DNA of 62,894 nt. Source: Bacteroidota bacterium (GTDB taxonomy: Bacteria > Bacteroidota > Ignavibacteria > Kapaibacteriales > NICIL-2). Positions 2,128 to 53,249 of the stretch are shown piece by piece (the first letter of the stretch is position 1; every line of letters starts with the position of its first letter). The DNA is taken from NCBI GenBank assembly GCA_046052705.1, contig JBJOLU010000227.1, forward strand, positions 1 through 62,894. Direction: 5' to 3'. A program made the position numbers and the translations under genes. The notes below the pieces were generated by a model. That model was given only the letters and a program-made list of their open reading frames with translations. It was not told the DNA's origin and searched no databases.

Positions 2128-3743
2128 CATTTGCTCCCAATAATCTGCAGACCTTTGGCGACTATCGGATCAACTTCCGACGCCCCCTGCGCTAACTGCG
2201 GATAGAATCTTTTTGCAAAGTCCTCGAATGTCTTAATGTTCGCCTGCTCCATTGCTGCTTTCTGCATCGGATCAAGCATGGCCTTGCGATATTCCGTCTG
2301 TGCAGCTTGCAGTCGACCTTCACGAGTCAGGTCTGCCTTAGCTCCAGTCTTGGCGCCATAAAGTTTCTCTGTGCCTTCCAAGTATCTGTTGGGATCACCT
2401 TGTGCATAACTTACCAGCCACTGTTCGTCTGGCGTGAGTTCGCGTTTTTGCTGCGCCTTGAGTTCAAGTTTGCGCAACTCCAACTCTGCCTGACGCAACT
2501 CCCGTTGCTGGGCTGCTCTGAACATTTCCGAAGCCGCGCCCGCTTGCAGTTCCCGCGCTTTACCAAATTCTCCACGAGCACGTTCCGCTCTTGCTTCCAT
2601 CGCTGCACGACGTTTTTCTTCCGTGCCAGCCATCAGCGCATCCATTTGTTTGCGGAACTCAAGATCGGATGCCCGTTCCGCTTCGATGGCTTGCAAATAC
2701 GCAGGACCTGCGCCTTCTAAACCACGACCTGCAATACCCCCCAACACGCGCATCAGACGTTCCATACCGCGCGGCTCCAGCATCTTCTGGCGTTCCGCCT
2801 GCATCTCTTGGACACGTTTCATGCGCTCATCGCCATAGGGCTGATCGATGCCGTAAACCTTAGCGATTTCCCGTTCTGTGCCGATCGCTTGTTGTGGAGA
2901 AGGCTCGGCCATTCTCTGTCGCATGAATTGAGCTGATTCTTCTGCGCCGGGCAACGCGGCAATACCTACAGCGGGCATCGGTCGTGCTGGCTGTTCGGGC
3001 TGCATGACCGGCGGACGCTGTGGTTGAGCCGTTTGCAGTTTTGGATTTCCCGCCGAAATTTCCTGTTGAAACTGCTCCTGAGCACGTTGCCGATCTGTCG
3101 GGTCTTGAATTGACGCAATCTGCCTAGTGATATCTGCTACGTTTCCCTGGAACCCAAACTCAGGTGCTTGTTGAGGGGCTTCCATCTCTGCAACAGGCAC
3201 TGAAACCGTTTTAGGCTCCGACGGTTGACGTTTCTTTATCACTTCTAAAATTGCATTCGCCACTACTGGCTTCCCCGCCCGGAGAGCACGTTTGTACTGT
3301 TCCTGTAATTCTTCAGTAGTAAGCACTCGTGACTCATAATCCGGTAGACCCCCAGCGGCATAACCGATAATTCCGCCTTCAGCAAAGTTGTACATACCTT
3401 CTGTCGGGAGTTCCGAAATTCCCTCAGCTTCGGGCTGACGCTGCGGAGTGGGCACTGGCGGAGCTGGTTGTGCGGCACCTGTCAGTGCCTGAAGTCCTTT
3501 GGCTTGCGCTTGCTTTTGGAGTGCTGCCAATCCTGCGGCCTGTTCCACTTGCTCTTTGACACTAGGTTGCTGGCCTTGCGCCATACCTTGTTGATTGGCG
3601 GCCGCTTTAGTAATGGACTCACGGCGCTGCAATTCTGCCAAGGCCAGATAGGGCGGAACCATCGGGTTCATCCCGTTGGCATATTGCATCAGGGCCGGGG
3701 TGGGTGTGTCTTTGAGACGTTCTTGAATTTGAACCAGATTCAT
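2127..3743 (-). CDS. Large virion-associated protein, Q/A/E/R-rich coiled-coil (putative internal/ejection protein)
   Basis: 538-aa ORF; stop overlaps next start; low-complexity Q/A-rich; motif MYNFAEGGIIGYAAGG shared with neighbouring virion proteins; sits in block of giant post-tail genes. Confidence 0.55.
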   Translation of the reverse strand: MNLVQIQERLKDTPTPALMQYANGMNPMVPPYLALAELQRRESITKAAANQQGMAQGQQPSVKEQVEQAAGLAALQKQAQAKGLQALTGAAQPAPPVPTPQRQPEAEGISELPTEGMYNFAEGGIIGYAAGGLPDYESRVLTTEELQEQYKRALRAGKPVVANAILEVIKKRQPSEPKTVSVPVAEMEAPQQAPEFGFQGNVADITRQIASIQDPTDRQRAQEQFQQEISAGNPKLQTAQPQRPPVMQPEQPARPMPAVGIAALPGAEESAQFMRQRMAEPSPQQAIGTEREIAKVYGIDQPYGDERMKRVQEMQAERQKMLEPRGMERLMRVLGGIAGRGLEGAGPAYLQAIEAERASDLEFRKQMDALMAGTEEKRRAAMEARAERARGEFGKARELQAGAASEMFRAAQQRELRQAELELRKLELKAQQKRELTPDEQWLVSYAQGDPNRYLEGTEKLYGAKTGAKADLTREGRLQAAQTEYRKAMLDPMQKAAMEQANIKTFEDFAKRFYPQLAQGASEVDPIVAKGLQIIGSK

Positions 3744-3751
3744 GTTTTACC

Positions 3752-5545
3752 TCACTTGGATGCAGGGGCTTGACCGAGGCCAGCTAGTGCCTGATAGAGA
3801 GCCAACAAACCTGTGCCGGAGCCGATGATGTTCTGCAACGGGCTCGTGTCCGCCGTGTATGAAGTCGCGGTAATCGGCAGTCCTTGGAGGAACGACTGCT
3901 GGTACTGGAGCATCTTGTACGGCCAATCGCGTTCTTCTTTGAACCGGTTGTAATCCGCCGCCAGCCCTTGCGACTCGATATCACGCTGCTGTGCGCCTGC
4001 GCCCAACTGGGCTTCAATGTTTCTCAGTCCTGCCGCTTGTCCGGCTTGTGCAAGATTCGCCCGCTGTGTTTGCGCTTGCAACGCGCCTTGGAGCCCTTGC
4101 ATACCGAACGTCGAACCAAACTGACGAGACGCTTCCGTAGCTTGTTGTGCGGCTGCTTTGCGTGCTTGATCTGCTTGGAACTGATTCGCTGCTTGTTGAT
4201 AAGCCTGGTTGTATCCTTGGCCGGTGATGTTTGCCAGATTCTGTTGCAGGTTACGCGCCAGTTCCGATTCCATGATTGCTTGACGTGACCCGCCAAATGC
4301 GCCTGCTTTGGTCAAACGCCCCGCTTGTTGAGCCCGCTGAATCTCAGCCTGACGACGGGCTTCTTCCAGTTGTGGATTCAAGGCCGCTTGAAGGTACGGG
4401 TTCATATACTGCTGAGCAGCGGCAGGAGTAAATTGCTCGTATCCGAACGTAGTAGGACGGTATGTCTGAGCGGCCATCTGTCCACCCAGACGTGCTGCTT
4501 CTTGCTCGGCTGCTCCGATCCCAGTCGGCGTAGTCAAACCTGATAACCCGGCAAATGCCTTCTGCTGGAGCCCGGATGCTTCAGGCGTAAGCGCACCGGT
4601 GTACGGCGTATACGGCATTTCTGCCAAAGCGCGCGCCCTGCCAAGCATGTCCGTGACGTATTCACCAGCCCAAGGTGCCAGCGTGCCGACCGTGCTTGTG
4701 CCTGTCTGCCCCACTTGTGTAGGACTGCTTAGACCCGGAATGTTCCCCGTCGCACCGGTAGTCGTGGCTGTGGGGACCAAGGCTCCGTTTGAAAATGCCA
4801 CGATGCCACCCTTGTTGTACTTGGGCATGTATTTCTCCGCTTTGATTTCTGGTGCTTGTTCCGTCTTTCCGGTACGCGCTTTTCGAACTCGATCCATCAT
4901 GTCGTAGAGTTTCTTGGCGCCCGCTTCGCTATTCCCATCTCCCAGATGTGACACCACATCGGCGGGCACAACGAACTCGCCGTGGCTCAACTTCGCTGGC
5001 TGTTGGTCGTCAATGGTTGTGTCTAACTCGTCCGCCATTCCACCTGTCGCGCCACGGAGATACCCACCTCCGGCACGGTACTGGACATCTGTCAGATATC
5101 GACCACGCGGCCCACCTGGTCTGCCTGCTGGTTGCTGTACGGCTTGCTGAGTCGCGGTGTAACGAGGGATATTCCCGGCATATCCGGCTGTTTGTTTCTT
5201 GTTCCCACCCATCAGAGAATACAAACCAGCAAGAGCCGTGAGCATGCCTGCGTTGTTCTGCAAAACTCCGGGCAGCGTGCTGCCGCCCAACAGCCCACTC
5301 AAACCTCCCGTACCGGAGGAGCCAGAACCGGACGATGTGCCGCCCTTGAAAAGACCGGAGAGCCAATCCTTGATCGTCGAAGACGAACCACCCGTTTGAG
5401 TAGGGTCATACGCGAAATTAAGAATATCGCCATATGTTGTACCTTCGGGCAGTTTGATGTTTGCCCAATCGATCACCGGTACATCTGGGTTATCGACCAC
5501 GATTTCCGTATCGTTTCCACCGCTGTTGTTAGACTCATCCATCAC
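3752..5545 (-). CDS. Large virion-associated protein (putative internal/ejection protein)
   Basis: 597-aa ORF; Gly/Ser-rich N-terminus, motif LSHGEFVVPADVVSHLGDGNSEAG and KYNKGGIVAF, Q-rich C-terminal half; start overlaps upstream stop. Confidence 0.55.
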   Translation of the reverse strand: MMDESNNSGGNDTEIVVDNPDVPVIDWANIKLPEGTTYGDILNFAYDPTQTGGSSSTIKDWLSGLFKGGTSSGSGSSGTGGLSGLLGGSTLPGVLQNNAGMLTALAGLYSLMGGNKKQTAGYAGNIPRYTATQQAVQQPAGRPGGPRGRYLTDVQYRAGGGYLRGATGGMADELDTTIDDQQPAKLSHGEFVVPADVVSHLGDGNSEAGAKKLYDMMDRVRKARTGKTEQAPEIKAEKYMPKYNKGGIVAFSNGALVPTATTTGATGNIPGLSSPTQVGQTGTSTVGTLAPWAGEYVTDMLGRARALAEMPYTPYTGALTPEASGLQQKAFAGLSGLTTPTGIGAAEQEAARLGGQMAAQTYRPTTFGYEQFTPAAAQQYMNPYLQAALNPQLEEARRQAEIQRAQQAGRLTKAGAFGGSRQAIMESELARNLQQNLANITGQGYNQAYQQAANQFQADQARKAAAQQATEASRQFGSTFGMQGLQGALQAQTQRANLAQAGQAAGLRNIEAQLGAGAQQRDIESQGLAADYNRFKEERDWPYKMLQYQQSFLQGLPITATSYTADTSPLQNIIGSGTGLLALYQALAGLGQAPASK

Positions 5546-9651: not shown

Positions 9652-10997
9652 TCCGTCAAATCAATAAATGCAAGTCCGCCAATGGCGTCTCCCGTGCCCG
9701 ACAATACGCGCACGCCGATTGTGTAGATGTCGCTTACCCCGGCAAGGCTGGCACCTAGTTGCAAATCAAAGTTGTACCCTGTATCTCCTGTGGAGGAACC
9801 ACCTGATTGGTTTGTCGCTGAGGAGTATTCGACCTGCACCGTAGTGCCACCACTCATGGCTGTTGCTGTGATGTCGTATTCCACATTATTGAAGCCACTT
9901 GTCACCCACGATGCGCCAGTGAGGGTCGTGTTTTTGACCAACTGAATTTCGTAGTTGCCTGCACTTGTTGGGAACACTGACATCAGTTGAGGTAGCACAA
10001 TCGCCCCGAGCCTTGTGCTTTTGAGCCGAATAGATACCAGCGGTAGGAGCGTAGTGCCAATTGTTGCCAAGGCCGTCGTGCGCCGGGCAATCTGCTGTTT
10101 GACTTGCTGCTGGTAGCCGCCTTCTGACACGACCGTCGAGCAAATCTGCTTCATGGTCGATGAAGATGCAGTCACGCCTGTATTTGTAATCTCATACCTG
10201 ACCGGCAGAATAGCCGTGGTCATGTACACCTTATTGATGTCGTTCGCGTTGTTGAATGTGTGGCAGATAACGAATCGCCCGTTGATGACAAAGCCACACC
10301 GCACACTGCCTACGCCCAGCCACTCGAAGTCGGCAAAGAAAATTTGCGCTTTCGTAATGTCGAGCGTATAGCCGCTATCGCCGGTTCCATCCAACTTGTC
10401 ACCGTTCCAGTCTGCCTGATTTACGGTTCGTGTGTCGCTGGCGGTGCCGCTGGTGTAAGTGCGCAGCACGAAGGATTTCGTTGTTCCGTTCTGCTGGAAG
10501 AACACGCCGTTTTCGGTGTTGAAATAGCCTACGCGTTGCCGAAGGTTTTCTTTTCCGGCGTTCATCACAAATGTCGCCATGACTTGCAGGCTCTTACCCG
10601 GCTGATATGGCATGGAACGATAGGTCTGTCGCACCACTTCACTACCGGAGCTTGTCGTCACATTGAGATCGACCGTGCTCTCATTGGCTTGATACGTTGT
10701 GCTGCCGCCTGTAGCCGTAGAGGTGTCGAACTGGTCATCGGCCGCAAACCGATTCTGGCTATCGAATAATGTATACGGCTCGCTAAAACGAGCGCGTCCG
10801 AACGCATCAATGGCTCCGCCGTAGAAGCCAACTTCATAAGGGCCTTGGTTTGCCACGAGCTGATCCACCACGTAGTTGAGTTGATTGAAATACAGCCGCA
10901 AGACGTTTGCGAACTGATCCATGAACTTTTTGTCGTATTGCACCGGACCTAGTGGCAGGCTCGGCACAGCGGGCATGCGTGCATCTACGAGAGCCAT
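9648..10997 (-). CDS. Virion structural protein (putative tail tube/nozzle-associated)
   Basis: 449-aa ORF, beta-rich, overlaps downstream start; adjacent to 624-aa structural ORF upstream of the giant proteins; function by position only. Confidence 0.45.
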   Translation of the reverse strand: MALVDARMPAVPSLPLGPVQYDKKFMDQFANVLRLYFNQLNYVVDQLVANQGPYEVGFYGGAIDAFGRARFSEPYTLFDSQNRFAADDQFDTSTATGGSTTYQANESTVDLNVTTSSGSEVVRQTYRSMPYQPGKSLQVMATFVMNAGKENLRQRVGYFNTENGVFFQQNGTTKSFVLRTYTSGTASDTRTVNQADWNGDKLDGTGDSGYTLDITKAQIFFADFEWLGVGSVRCGFVINGRFVICHTFNNANDINKVYMTTAILPVRYEITNTGVTASSSTMKQICSTVVSEGGYQQQVKQQIARRTTALATIGTTLLPLVSIRLKSTRLGAIVLPQLMSVFPTSAGNYEIQLVKNTTLTGASWVTSGFNNVEYDITATAMSGGTTVQVEYSSATNQSGGSSTGDTGYNFDLQLGASLAGVSDIYTIGVRVLSGTGDAIGGLAFIDLTD

Positions 10998-33917: not shown

Positions 33918-36422
33918 TCAATAATATGCCTTTTTTCGCCGCCATCCGATTTCCTCGTCAGGCTCGTCGGTCTGTAACCGCAAAAATCCACCCTGCCTAA
34001 ACCGGATGAGGGCCTGCACCGAGCTATCCAATAAGTCATCGTGCTCCGCATTAGGAAATCTCGCCATTTCCTCAATTACTTCATCAGCCCACCTCGCGTC
34101 CGGTGCCCATACTTTACCCGAGGCAAACAAATCTGTAACCGAATTGAGACGCGCAAATTTGTCATTACCGCGCGATGGCGTATATTCACTAACCGGAATA
34201 CCCATACGCCTTAACTCAAATATCAACGGCGCCCCAGCTGCCTTCGCTTCAATAATAAATGCGTCAGGCTCCCATTCTTTCCACGAATTAAATGCTGCTT
34301 GTTTTAATTCCGGGAACTCCCATTTATCCTTAAACGCATCCAGCAATATGATATTCACATCATTGGGGTCTTCGTTAAGATTAAAAATACCCCAAGTCGT
34401 ACAGGCCGAATAGTCCGACCTCTCGCCTTTGGTAAAGGCTGTATCCCAAGACTGGATAATGAATTCACAATTAGGCGGACGATCTTTATTCCATATACGC
34501 CACCACTCACGCTTAATAATCGCACCCGCTTCGCCAGTCGGCTGTTGCTGGTACTGTGCGTTCCACTTGTAGGAAGGTAACTCTTCTTTAAGAGCAAGAA
34601 GCTCTTCGAGACTCCAGAACTCAGGCCATAGAGGTGCGCCCGATGGAAGGATGGCCGGTAGCTCGATCACTTCCCATTCGTCCTCGTGTCGTGAGTTCCT
34701 AATGATCTTGCCCGTTAAGTCCTTGTCACTCCAGCGAGTCATAATTACGACAATGGCCGCCCCTGGCTGGAGACGTTGCCGTGGTCCGGAGGTGTACCAT
34801 TCATACACGCCGTCAAATACGGTCGGGTCGCCTTGGGCTAACTTGGCCTCTTGCTCGCTGTGCGGGTCATCGATGATAAGAAGGTCAGCACCTTTACCTG
34901 TCACCGTACCTCCAACGCCGATAGCAAAATAGCTACCCCCACCCGAGGTATCCCAGCGTCCAGCCGCTTTGCTATCAGCCCGAAGATCAACACTCGGAAA
35001 CACTTTCTTATAGTGATCCGACCCAACCAGGTTTCGAACCTTCCGTCCGAAGCCAACAGCCAATTCCGCCGTGTTTGAACATTGGATAACTTTCTTCTCC
35101 GGGTACTTTCCTAAAAACCAAGCCGGCAAAAGAAACGAGCCAAACTCGGATTTGGTGTTGTGCGTACAAATGTAGCCTTCTCCGGCCAAAAACAAACCGT
35201 CTTGACGAGCTACCTTGATACATTGCGTACTGCCAGTTTCGTTTAGTTTTTCTACTTTGATGTACCTTCCGAATGCTGGCTTGTACTTGATCGTCCGATT
35301 TTCTTTCCTGTCTAAATGAGCAATGTTGGAAGCATAAAAGCTAATCCTCCATGTCTTGCCGTAGCTTTTGTCTCCAATTTTTGCCTCGGTAGAGATCAAT
35401 GAGTTCTTAATCCCAAGGCTGGCTAGAAGTTCGCGCACTTGATTGATGAGACTCAAGTTGCTTTGCGCGAAGAAACATTGACCTGCTTTTGACACGTTGC
35501 CATCCGTGTCCATCAGACCTTTGAGCAACCATCTACGTTGATCTACGCTACCCATCAGATACGCCTGCGGGATGTGTTTGTTCCCTAACACACCAAGATC
35601 GCGGAGTTTTTCTTTTAGACCCAAAACTCCGAACGTCATCGGGGTAGATTGGGCAGTCGTTCTGTACCCAAGCGCCTCGAACATTTGCCGAATGCCAACC
35701 TGATCGTCATCGTGACAGGTAATTACCCCTTGATTCTTGTGCCCATCACCGAGCCATACACCAAGAACATAGGGTGCTATCGGCAAGGATTGCCGTTCGT
35801 AAATGACGGGATTCACGTCAGGCAATCTTGGCAATCGTGGATTTTTGACATGCCCCGCCAAGAAGTGTGTGCTCCCACCTCTACCCATTCTCAGCACTTC
35901 ACCGTTCTGCCTACGCCATAACTCTTCAGTCGTGAAGTCGTGATAGACATCGTGCTTTCGGTGCAACCTAACCGTCCAAAGATGCTCGCCATCAACATCC
36001 AGGCTGAATCCATCATCCGTAGTCACGCGATAAATGTCTCTATCGTGAAACACTTCTGATTTTCCAATTACCTCTGTTGGAATCCCATCAGGCCCGAAAA
36101 CATAATCGCCAACCAATAAGTCGGCCATCGTTTTCCATCCGTTCAATGTTGGTATCTTCATATCTAACCTTATCGCGTGCCGAGGGGCCATGTTGATGAT
36201 GAGTCTCTTCACCTTCCCCGCCGCGATTTCCTCGAACTTCTTCGCCATCAAAGCATGGTGCCGACCGTGGATAAACGACGGCCACATCATCTTCACAAAC
36301 GCCATGAAGTCCGCTTGCGCCTTCTCCCGCTCCAGCGCCTCTTTATATGCGCCTACCTGAGCCAACAACTTCTGTTGCTCATTCTCAGGCAGCTTAGAAA
36401 TCAACGCGGCCAAGTCGCTCAT
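33918..36422 (-). CDS. terL: Terminase large subunit interrupted by a 340-aa intein
   Basis: Exteins: INMAPRH|TKSE (P-loop), LLIIDDPH (Walker B), C-terminal RNase-H-like nuclease motifs (QSWDTAF, IIEAKAAG, EHDDLLDS); 494 aa after intein removal. Confidence 0.9.
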   Translation of the reverse strand: MSDLAALISKLPENEQQKLLAQVGAYKEALEREKAQADFMAFVKMMWPSFIHGRHHALMAKKFEEIAAGKVKRLIINMAPRHAIRLDMKIPTLNGWKTMADLLVGDYVFGPDGIPTEVIGKSEVFHDRDIYRVTTDDGFSLDVDGEHLWTVRLHRKHDVYHDFTTEELWRRQNGEVLRMGRGGSTHFLAGHVKNPRLPRLPDVNPVIYERQSLPIAPYVLGVWLGDGHKNQGVITCHDDDQVGIRQMFEALGYRTTAQSTPMTFGVLGLKEKLRDLGVLGNKHIPQAYLMGSVDQRRWLLKGLMDTDGNVSKAGQCFFAQSNLSLINQVRELLASLGIKNSLISTEAKIGDKSYGKTWRISFYASNIAHLDRKENRTIKYKPAFGRYIKVEKLNETGSTQCIKVARQDGLFLAGEGYICTHNTKSEFGSFLLPAWFLGKYPEKKVIQCSNTAELAVGFGRKVRNLVGSDHYKKVFPSVDLRADSKAAGRWDTSGGGSYFAIGVGGTVTGKGADLLIIDDPHSEQEAKLAQGDPTVFDGVYEWYTSGPRQRLQPGAAIVVIMTRWSDKDLTGKIIRNSRHEDEWEVIELPAILPSGAPLWPEFWSLEELLALKEELPSYKWNAQYQQQPTGEAGAIIKREWWRIWNKDRPPNCEFIIQSWDTAFTKGERSDYSACTTWGIFNLNEDPNDVNIILLDAFKDKWEFPELKQAAFNSWKEWEPDAFIIEAKAAGAPLIFELRRMGIPVSEYTPSRGNDKFARLNSVTDLFASGKVWAPDARWADEVIEEMARFPNAEHDDLLDSSVQALIRFRQGGFLRLQTDEPDEEIGWRRKKAYY
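35157..36176 (-). mobile_element. Intein (residues 83-422 of TerL) with LAGLIDADG homing-endonuclease domain; Ala1, class-3-like WCT signature
   Basis: Starts AIRLDMKIPTLNGWKTMADLLVGDYV (block A with Ala1), DGEHLW (block B His+Trp), LGVWLGDG and LLKGLMDTDG (LAGLIDADG x2), TQCIKV (block F Cys), GYICTHN|T (block G, +1 Thr). Confidence 0.85.
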
Positions 36423-51476: not shown

Positions 51477-51588
51477 TGTTGATGACGGGATTCAAACCCG
51501 CAACCGTCCCCTGCCGAGGCCGCTCTATCTTTCGTCTGCCGACTAGCTGGTTTCAATATATGCCAGCTTTCAGTTGAGCTACACCAAC
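51477..51588 (-). ncRNA. tRNA-like element / degenerate tRNA (112 nt)
   Basis: Acceptor GTTGGTG/CATCAAC (one G.U), U8, T-arm GCGGG-TTTGAAT-CCCGT. Between them there are ~45 extra nt, a 6-bp stem AGCTGG/CCAGCT with a 12-nt loop, and no canonical anticodon loop. The T-loop has U where C56 is expected. Confidence 0.45.
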
Positions 51589-52366: not shown

Positions 52367-52800
52367 ATTCAGTCTCGTCAGGATCACGTGGCATGCGGGA
52401 TAGGAAACGCATAGGAACTCTGGGCAAAACCTTCCCAAGGGCAGCCTACGAAGGCAACCCTCGGGATGTATCCAATGGCTCATGCTAGATTAGGTATCCG
52501 CTGAGTCACCCCATCGCTCAACCCCGGCCTAACCCGTGTTGAGTCGCAGTCTTTTGCCTATCAGGAGGCTCACACCGAGCACTGCGCCACTCGATACTTT
52601 GAGTGCATCCCGCTCTTGCTGGTCTGGTGCGATTGTTCCAGCTTTAAGCTACTGCCCACCGTTTCCATACGTCCGTCCTAAGGTACTACCCTTTCGCCGC
52701 CGCCATGACGCTTTACGGTTACTCAGTTCCTACCCGAGGTATCGGGACTTAAGTGACTCTTAAACAGAAGCCGAGTTGAAGCGAGCCAGAAAAGCAAAAA

Positions 52801-52932
52801 CCCCAGAGTGCTTAAGTGGGGCATGGCCCTGGCATGGGCAACCAACAATGCGATAGGAACAACGCACCACTGATTACACATGCCCCACTTGAACATTCTG
52901 GGGTAAGTTATTGTTCCTATAGACATTGTTGG
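52801..52932 (+). repeat. Two interleaved long inverted repeats (A/A' ~25 bp, B/B' ~21 bp): pseudoknot or mutually exclusive hairpins
   Basis: A 52801-52825 CCCCAGAGTGCTTAAGTGGGGCATG vs A' 52879-52903 CATGCCCCACTTGAACATTCTGGGG; B 52842-52862 CCAACAATGCGATAGGAACAA vs B' 52911-52932 TTGTTCCTATAGACATTGTTGG; order is A-B-A'-B'. Confidence 0.6.
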
Positions 52933-52972
52933 GATGCCGCCCAACAGGAGAAATCTTGCCTAACCTCACGTA

Positions 52973-53002
52973 TTACGTCAAGAGGGTGACGTAACTTTTT
53001 TT
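52973..53002 (+). terminator. Terminator-like hairpin + T7 on the plus strand
   Basis: TTACGTCA-agaggg-TGACGTAA-C-TTTTTTT; no plus-strand CDS upstream. Confidence 0.45.
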
Positions 53003-53005
53003 ACT

Positions 53006-53045
53006 TCTATGAGTCTCTATGGGAGTTCTATAAGGTTCTATGAGG
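53006..53045. repeat. Four iteron-like direct repeats TCTATRRG phased 10-11 bp
   Basis: CTAT at 53007, 53017, 53028, 53038 (TTCTATGAG, CTCTATGGG, TTCTATAAG, TTCTATGAG); adjacent to T7 tract; between convergent hairpins. Confidence 0.6.
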
Positions 53046-53064
53046 TTTCTGCTAGAACTTCAGA

Positions 53065-53086
53065 CCGCCCACCCGGAGATGGGCGG
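53065..53086 (-). terminator. GC-rich hairpin just 3' of the Cys-rich peptide ORF (weak U-tract)
   Basis: CCGCCCA-cccggaga-TGGGCGG, 8 nt after the stop. Confidence 0.4.
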
Positions 53087-53093
53087 GCGTTGC

Positions 53094-53249
53094 TTAGAAA
53101 CAGCGCGTGACGCACTGACCCTCTGGTGTGCAGCATATGGTACATGGCACCACACGATCTCCGACCATCATCGTGAAGTGAGTGCAGTTAGCCCATGCCG
53201 CCAGCGGGATGCCGACTAAGGCGAGGCCAACTAAGATTTTGCGTTTCAT
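53094..53249 (-). CDS. Secreted Cys-rich mini-peptide (51 aa precursor, ~31 aa mature, 6 Cys)
   Basis: AAAGGAAAATC-ATG; MKRKILVGLALVGIPLAAWA|NCTHFTMMVGDRVVPCTICCTPEGQCVTRCF; below ORF-track cut-off. Confidence 0.55.
   Translation of the reverse strand: MKRKILVGLALVGIPLAAWANCTHFTMMVGDRVVPCTICCTPEGQCVTRCF

Follow-up and report, generated by a model that had tools for sequence, protein, structure and literature searches.

A predicted family of pseudoknotted non-coding RNAs at the head of RNA islands in uncultured phages

Inverted repeats in an RNA-rich island of a phage contig

The stretch of DNA analysed here (the window) is the whole of the 62,894-nucleotide (nt) contig JBJOLU010000227.1, which comes from a metagenome-assembled genome of 2.15 Mb. 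At about 63 kb, the contig appears to be a complete phage genome. Among its genes are those for a terminase, a helicase, a Toprim primase and a large polyvalent protein, as well as a recombination operon (exonuclease/Erf/SSB). Within a 600-nt gap between two minus-strand open reading frames (ORFs), itself free of ORFs, there are two interleaved inverted repeats, arranged in the order A, B, A', B'. From comparison with homologues we conclude that these repeats are the helices of a folded non-coding RNA of about 155 nt, predicted on the minus strand and representing a family, so far uncatalogued, that is carried by uncultured phages. We infer that its ends lie at about 52790 and 52946. The RNA is located within an RNA-rich and nearly ORF-free island (51.2-53.4 kb) that heads a long leftward gene array, where it adjoins tRNA-Thr and is divergent from the recombination operon.

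A repeat search of the window recovered the four arms that an earlier sequence-only reading of this DNA had described, and found them far above chance. A and A' correspond to repeat I1 (52800-52825 / 52879-52904; 26 nt, 88% complementary). B and B' consist of two parts, I4 (52853-52862 / 52911-52920; ATAGGAACAA/TTGTTCCTAT, 10/10) and I7 (52842-52850 / 52924-52932; CCAACAATG/CATTGTTGG, 9/9). By our estimate I7 alone, at 9 bp, is at about the chance level within 600 nt. It is particular to this window and overlaps the 3' strands of two hairpins described below, P1 and P3; it is either a chance match or a local alternative fold. Read on the minus strand, the long helix A'/A is followed at once by GGGGUUUUUGCUUUU, a feature that the earlier reading did not consider. 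When both strands were folded, as that reading had recommended, the region exceeded shuffled sequences on each, with z = -4.97 for the plus and -5.49 for the minus strand.

Homologues in uncultured phages

The strand, the helices, the pseudoknot, the promoter and terminator motifs, the extent of the family and its genomic context were all established, at the level of sequence, by the comparison of homologues. The first homologous elements, in loci L063 and L026, were recognized as matches to the A arm among loci that had been fetched via the neighbouring exonuclease, and they have the same architecture as the window with compensatory changes. The number of matches grew to 26 and then to 76, of which 64 are distinct, when viral contigs were scanned with patterns, a covariance model (R1) was applied and one metagenome scan was added. 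R1 matches the window with 119 bits (E = 3e-25). The sources are uncultured phage contigs, the longest of which are about 58-67 kb where lengths are known, and the carriers are uncultured phages with genomes of about 60 kb.

Rfam 15 has no match overlapping 52790-53002 even at E <= 10, and in the whole window only two matches, both to tRNA, reach the gathering score. Among 22 homologous loci scanned with Rfam, none (0/22) has a match on the element itself. GenBank phages, searched at the DNA level with the window region and with two further members of the family, gave no match. A pattern scan of a genome collection listed at least 119 candidate loci; the first 80 of these proved without exception to be chance occurrences, with 0 model matches. 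The covariance model was also run on 401 genomes of Burkholderiales and on 40 relatives of the assembly that contains the window, and found the window itself only. Word searches of the literature did not find an RNA of this description.

Four helices, three of which covary

From 5' to 3' the predicted fold consists of P1, a single-stranded linker, the 5' strand of P2, the junction UGU(G/A), P3, P4, the 3' strand of P2 and a U-tract. P1 (52928..52945, minus strand) is the hairpin GUUGGG-CGGCAU-CCCAAC; the sequence-only reading had correctly seen it as a third hairpin, GTTGGG-n6-CCCAAC, at this place. Its loop holds the motif GGCA and reads YGGCA throughout the family, in which G15, G16 and C17 are invariant and A18 nearly so. 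P2, a 25-bp helix of A' (5' strand, 52879..52903, minus) with A (3' strand, 52801..52825, minus, identified by the repeat search and the family pair counts), closes a three-way junction that bears P3 and P4. P3 (52840..52875, minus; AAUCAGUGGUGCG / CGCAUUGUUGGUU) is present in the minimum free energy fold of the minus strand. P4 (52826..52839, minus) is GCCC-AUGCCA-GGGC in the window and GCCC-AUGCCAA-GGGC in the family structure. UGCC in the P4 loop and GGCA in the P1 loop are complementary sequences, and the two loops, which do not covary, may be in contact. The invariant parts of the RNA are the P1-loop GGCA, the junction UGU(G/A), P4 and the inner part of P2.

Among the 64 sequences, 91.8% of the helix cells are paired, a value somewhat inflated in that the alignments were fitted to our own model. 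Column shuffles give 76.4%, with 0 of 500 reaching the observed value, and slid partners give 32-47%. Judging by these controls, the inflation is unlikely to be the main effect. For P2 by itself, 93.6% of the cells in its 25 pairs are paired. Changes on both sides of a pair were found in 32 of the 47 pairs (6/7 in P1, 15/25 in P2 and 11/11 in P3), with none in P4, all four pairs of which are invariant. Pair counts from the 26-sequence set agree with those from the 64 sequences. A 73-codon minus-strand ORF at 52723-52944 was considered as a gene and rejected because substitutions track base pairing rather than codons; the family alignment also contains indels of 1 and 2 nt.

Strand, promoter and terminator signals

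In the window R1 scores 119 bits on the minus strand compared with 43 on the plus strand, and similar gaps are seen in every locus. Helix cells read on the minus strand contain 296 G.U and 57 A.C combinations, and the numbers swap on the plus strand. This excess of G.U over A.C fixes the minus strand. The sequence-only reading had favored the plus strand, in part because of a single G.U in A/A'. That wobble is real, yet base-by-base pairing of P3 in the window reveals five G.U pairs, so that this helix exists on the minus strand only. The promoter and the U-tract are likewise conserved on the minus strand only. In sum, the earlier strand call was wrong, and the predicted RNA is on the minus strand. 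Of the proposed plus-strand regulatory RNA of about 200 nt, what stands is a structured, regulatory-type RNA of 150-200 nt.

All 25 of the members tested carry a -35/-10 pair with a spacing of 16-18 nt, ending 0-2 nt before the start of the model, for instance TTGACA-17-TATTCT, TTGCAA-18-TATAGT and TTGACA-16-TACAAT. The corresponding elements in the window are TTGACG (52976-52981, minus) and, 17 nt after it, CAAGAT (52953..52958, minus). TTGACG is within a perfect 8-bp palindrome, TTACGTCA-n6-TGACGTAA (52973..52994), which is operator-like, occurs once only in the window and is absent at this position in other members. Upstream of the -35 box there is an A7 tract (52996..53002, minus) that resembles an UP element and might act as one. 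Together, the palindrome and the A-tract are what the sequence-only reading had taken for a plus-strand terminator, a hairpin and T7 at 52973-53002. They are indeed present, and a consensus scan lists them as terminator-like on the plus strand. As a terminator, however, this feature is not conserved in homologues and it coincides with the -35/operator region and A-tract of the minus-strand promoter. Like the earlier reading, we found no plus-strand promoter.

Immediately upstream of the promoter, four phased direct repeats of about 10 bp, TTCTATRAGG-like and clustered in the window only here (53005..53046), are a candidate binding array for a phage-specific regulator. In L090 the corresponding position, some 35-70 nt ahead of the RNA start, is taken by a different fourfold repeat (TTGTTCCA), TTGT(T/G)CCA. 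Such phased repeats, spaced by about one helical turn, are absent upstream of the promoter in most members. Origin iterons were considered as a family feature and rejected, since upstream repeats are found in some members only.

At the other end of the RNA, P2 is followed by GGGGUUUUU, an arrangement that resembles an intrinsic terminator. In the window the U-tract UUUUUGCUUUU (52790..52800, minus) comes directly after the G+C-rich base of P2, so that the minus strand reads CCCCAG...CUGGGG and then UUUUUGCUUUU; in all members examined, P2 is followed by GGGGUUUU(U/G)CUUU.

A pseudoknot that evolves faster than its scaffold

In every member the linker between P1 and P2 is complementary to the P3 loop, with duplexes of 7-13 bp and -10 to -27 kcal/mol. 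The window provides UCUAUAGGAACAA (52911..52923, minus), which is the first half of B', as the 5' strand, and UUGUUCCUAU (52853-52862, minus), the second half of B, as the 3' strand; the complementary run is 11 bp, a length found in 0 of 500 shuffles (z = -5.4). Cognate duplexes are at or below those of shuffled linkers in all members (z from -1.4 to -6.9), and non-cognate combinations of linker and P3 loop are much weaker. The P3 loop therefore pairs outside its own helix and does so with covariation, as in an H-type or long-range RNA pseudoknot. The sequence-only reading had proposed that A/A' and B/B' form either a pseudoknot or a mutually exclusive switch and had suggested an alignment of homologues. 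In that alignment both pairings are retained by covariation, and since they share no bases and always occur together, the pseudoknot alternative is upheld and the A-versus-B switch is not.

There are 51 different pseudoknot 5' strands among the family members. At a scaffold identity of 98% the linkers are 72% identical and at 95% they are 62% identical, where the random expectation is 44%. These comparisons indicate that the predicted pseudoknot evolves much faster than the remainder of the RNA. The loci L052 and L061 illustrate this point. Over about 565 nt they differ only in the pseudoknot patches and, at the extreme left, by two substitutions and an indel of 3 nt; the two patches change jointly, from CUAUGGA/UCCAUAG to GAUAGGA/UCCUAUC. 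L321 and L308 share 100% identity across the 200 nt upstream, yet their pseudoknots are unrelated, and L276 and L118 show a similar pattern. Because the sequences are wholly replaced while the pairing is kept, selection appears to act on base pairing and not on recognition of the sequence by a protein. The turnover fits an exchange by short recombination tracts that end in the conserved scaffold and draw on a pool of drifted pseudoknots, and it also fits diversifying selection.

The 13-nt pseudoknot strand has no third copy in the 62.9-kb window at up to 1 mismatch, which argues against antisense immunity of the c4/CI type. An immunity RNA of that type was accordingly rejected.

Complementarity beyond the U-tract and the variable downstream blocks

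The 5' strand of P1 is complementary not only to its own 3' strand but also to 7-10 nt located just 3' of the U-tract, a potential helix that we call P0. At least 8 covarying sequence combinations were found: GUCAGAGC/GCUCUGAC, GUCAGAGGUG/CACCUCUGAC, UUGUUGGGCG/CGCCCAACAA, GUCGGUG/CACCGAC, GUCAGCG/CGCUGAC, GGUCGGC/GCCGACC, GUCAGAU/AUCUGAC and GUCUGG/CCAGAC. Counting of P0 pairs on a MAFFT alignment of the concatenated ends proved too inconsistent, and an anchored run-length test was used instead, in which the cognate Watson-Crick run averages 5.98 compared with 4.11 for non-cognate combinations. A version of the test that allows G.U is uninformative because the U-tract pairs with almost anything. 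P0 is fully Watson-Crick at positions where P1 has U.U or U.G. In the window the candidate 3' strand of P0 is UUCAAC (52775..52780, minus), which could pair with the P1 5' sequence GUUGGG. Only P1 and P0 are mutually exclusive, and this pair lies outside the terminator and partly beyond the interval covered by the sequence-only reading.

In each case the U-tract is followed directly by an ORF-free block that appears to be structured. Of these blocks, 25 loci have a first type, 20 a second and 8 a third, which the window partly shares, and there are others, so that at least 6 unrelated types follow the RNA. They are shuffled relative to it, and the genes beyond them vary. The persistence of P0 complementarity across different block types implies that P0 belongs to the present module, and the complementarity itself argues that transcription sometimes continues past the terminator. 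In the window the block, a variable "cargo" of about 290 nt (52484..52774, minus), has no Rfam match; a core of about 60 nt (GGGUAGGAACUGAGUAACCGUAAAGCGUCAUGGCGGCGGCGAAAGGGUAGU) is common to it and to the blocks of L140, L275, L277 and others. Beyond the blocks, many loci have ParB-like, helicase and Toprim genes. In the window a DUF5710 protein comes next, and then, farther off, the helicase and primase. A search for relatives of this 179-aa DUF5710 protein gave one weak locus.

In three loci the downstream block is the Betaproteobacteria-1 RNA (RF02932), which begins 7 nt after the U-tract (L061 10279-10394 and L058 9776-9891, each with 92.6 bits, and L052 8086-8165, all on the plus strand of the locus). 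This orphan Rfam family thereby gains a phage context and an upstream partner. The same three loci contain a candidate type I hammerhead ribozyme, GUCCUU-CUGAUGA-GCCGUGAGUCGGC-GAA-ACCUACGGGU-A / AAGGAC, at about 9942-9986 (plus) in L061 and at the same place in L052 and L058, some 140-180 nt upstream of the RNA start. Rfam does not report it at E <= 1; in L058 its stem II covaries (GGCCUCAAUGGCC) and its stem III holds an insert. A hairpin cassette of about 125 nt with an 18-bp closing stem, GACUGUUUGAUGGUGGUG ... CACCACCAUCAAGCAGUU, lies between the RNA and the next block in L063 (about 3740-3880) and L084 (about 2500-2600; both positions are estimates on the plus strand of the locus), and shows the modular build of these islands.

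Further features of the window

Several observations concern other parts of the window. A tRNA-like match on the minus strand at 51477-51588 scores 31.2 bits, which barely exceeds the gathering score of Rfam. Its acceptor stem and T arm are good, but the D region holds an insertion of about 46 nt, and ARAGORN does not call it. A G+C-rich hairpin, CGCCCA-n-TGGGCG (53063-53090), is found right after a 51-codon ORF (53094-53249) that encodes a Cys-rich peptide with a signal-peptide-like N-terminus; the hairpin may be the end of a tRNA-Thr/peptide unit. On the minus strand a single ORF runs off both contig ends (1-2130 and 59195-62893; 710 and 1232 codons) and contains an LPD38 domain. Since this ORF crosses both ends, the contig is probably a complete circular or circularly permuted genome. 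Residues 294-350 of the large terminase (33918-36422, minus) form a LAGLIDADG-type domain, suggestive of an intein or of a homing endonuclease inserted there. Finally, the promoters of the RNA are of the classical TTGACA/TATAAT type and the neighbouring RNA in relatives belongs to a Betaproteobacteria family; the phage contig may be mis-binned.

Discussion

We infer termination, read-through, a binding partner and a biological role from these data, and the interpretation that we favor, with a probability of roughly 0.7, is that the RNA is a leader or gate module with a leaky terminator, which heads the leftward RNA island and also yields a small RNA. According to this interpretation, the host RNA polymerase would make the RNA early in infection, starting at the sigma-70-type promoter TTGACG-17-CAAGAT a few bases before P1. 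The pseudoknot between the linker and the P3 loop would fold the P3 arm back along P2. Most transcripts would probably end at P2 and the U-tract and give a compact, stable small RNA. In this molecule the invariant P1-loop GGCA, UGU(G/A), P4 with its loop UGCC and the inner part of P2 would cluster around the junction, and together they could provide the surface to which a conserved partner, probably a protein, binds. Some of the transcripts probably read through, and the 7-10 bases after the U-tract would then displace the 3' strand of P1 to form P0, which would tie the module to the variable structured RNA downstream and to the early and replication genes beyond.

Several points weigh against this interpretation. 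The domain enclosed by P2 is branched and measures about 50-100 nt, which is atypical for an intrinsic terminator, and a terminator consensus scan does not list P2 and the U-tract, which do not form a compact hairpin with a short loop. In the window itself the -10 box CAAGAT is weak, and so is P0, with 4 Watson-Crick and 2 G.U pairs. The family loci have no conserved protein-coding neighbour that would indicate a partner, and the inflation of the pairing percentages mentioned above must be kept in mind. A simple gate model leaves the hypervariability of the pseudoknot unexplained.

Alternatively, the RNA may act exclusively in trans, as an independent small RNA that serves as a decoy, sponge or scaffold for a protein or RNA. 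In that case the terminator would be efficient, and the P0 complementarity would be incidental or would belong to the next RNA. Its own promoter and terminator motifs agree with this, as do the invariant unpaired motifs at the junction, and the downstream blocks are as unrelated and shuffled as independent genes in an RNA cluster would be. Nevertheless, the bases after the U-tract covary with the 5' end of the RNA across the downstream types, which is hard to understand if transcription always terminates, and the gap of 5-8 nt between U-tract and block leaves no room for a separate promoter and shows no sign of one. We regard an exclusively trans-acting RNA as unlikely. As to function, the RNA most likely serves as a leader or gate, or as a small RNA that binds a partner.

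The hypervariable pseudoknot raises a further possibility, namely that it is a specificity code, a private "address" of each lineage whose strands pair between molecules or are read by a partner. The diversity of addresses could be maintained by selection, for example if it avoided mixed assemblies or cross-regulation in co-infection. Another pressure could be escape from an RNA-targeting host defence, acting on the only changeable part of an essential RNA. We consider a code of this kind improbable. In a rival reading the RNA assembles with itself: the "pseudoknot" strands would pair between molecules, in the manner of phi29 pRNA or of the cages built by ROOL and GOLLD, and would constitute a private assembly code. 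Such a code would agree with the finding of 51 unrelated pseudoknot sequences in RNAs whose scaffolds are 90-98% identical, and with their exchange between almost identical backgrounds; sequence data cannot separate intramolecular from intermolecular pairing. Neutral compensatory drift with short recombination tracts is, however, the simpler account. In addition, the P3 stem and pseudoknot together comprise about 19 bp in two members, roughly the span of P2, which would fit an intramolecular contact. For these reasons self-assembly seems to us quite improbable.

There is still less to recommend a ligand-sensing riboswitch or a self-cleaving ribozyme, with the junction core as aptamer or active site. 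In favor of such an RNA, the three-way junction is compact, is held by a pseudoknot, has an invariant core and precedes a terminator, and the hammerhead candidates upstream in L061, L052 and L058 are in the same RNA islands. But there are zero matches to any Rfam riboswitch or ribozyme model, even at E <= 10, and a 25-bp P2 would form with or without a ligand. In contrast to an attenuator or riboswitch, in which terminator and anti-terminator exclude each other ahead of one class of gene, no conserved anti-terminator that competes with P2 was found and the downstream content is variable.

The proposal of the sequence-only reading, a plus-strand RNA of about 200 nt that ends at the T7 hairpin at 52973-53002 and in which A/A' and B/B' compete, is barely tenable. 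The plus strand does fold well, the hairpin with T7 fits a terminator consensus and the one G.U in A/A' works on that strand only. These features are outweighed by the drop from 119 to 43 bits, by the 296 G.U cells that would turn into A.C mismatches, by the loss of P3 and the constant co-presence of both helices, by the lack of a plus-strand promoter, and by the absence of the T7 hairpin from homologues. We give next to no credence to an element that acts as DNA (a replication origin, recombination site or protein-binding cruciform): its position at the border of the replication module, with phased short repeats and an A-tract adjoining in the window, would suit one, but against it stand the restriction of the G.U excess to one strand, the conservation of promoter and U-tract, and the absence of the phased repeats from most members.

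The leader or gate interpretation has precedents. In riboswitch-derived small RNAs such as SreA and SreB of Listeria, the terminated leader is itself a small RNA. Leaders of that type resemble the present family in having their own sigma-70-type promoter, a structured domain that ends in a stem and U-tract with more transcript downstream, and a sequence past the terminator that pairs back to the leader (here P0). The family differs in that it has no known ligand and no anti-terminator competing with P2, in that a variable structured RNA follows instead of a defined gene, and in that the terminator stem encloses the whole pseudoknotted three-way junction.

Among phage RNAs, phi29 pRNA (RF00044) is also 120-170 nt long, with its own promoter, a three-way junction and two distant single-stranded segments whose complementarity covaries between related phages despite differing sequences. 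That RNA builds a multimer by intermolecular loop-loop pairing; in the present family the covariation would fit pairing within or between molecules. The family has no match to the RF00044 model, and its carriers are phages of about 60 kb with a large terminase. The c4 antisense RNA of P1/P7 and the CI RNA of P4 (RF01695) are likewise small phage leader RNAs upstream of replication or early genes, and they use short complementary segments, which differ between related phages, as specificity elements. Unlike them, the RNA in the window has no RF01695 match, its pseudoknot strands have no further copy in the 62.9-kb genome, both strands are in one folded RNA rather than in an RNA and its mRNA targets, and nothing points to processing by RNase P. 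Betaproteobacteria-1 (RF02932), GOLLD and ROOL are, like the present RNA, orphan structured RNAs of phage RNA islands by tRNA genes. They differ from it in sequence and fold, GOLLD and ROOL being far larger, and the window has no RF02932 match; in L061 that match starts 7 nt past the element.

With 64 distinct sequences, four helices of which three covary, a pseudoknot and promoter and terminator motifs, the predicted family represents a new class beside the few structured phage RNAs that are known. There is also a caution regarding method, in that a strand assigned from a single sequence, on the evidence of one wobble and one terminator-like hairpin, may prove to be the wrong one once homologues are compared. 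The gene-free RNA islands by phage tRNA genes appear to share a plan, a conserved first module that bears the promoter followed by interchangeable structured RNAs. Within that module the pseudoknot is wholly replaced between otherwise nearly identical genomes, and if selection is responsible, this would point to a specificity system that operates at the level of RNA in lytic phages.

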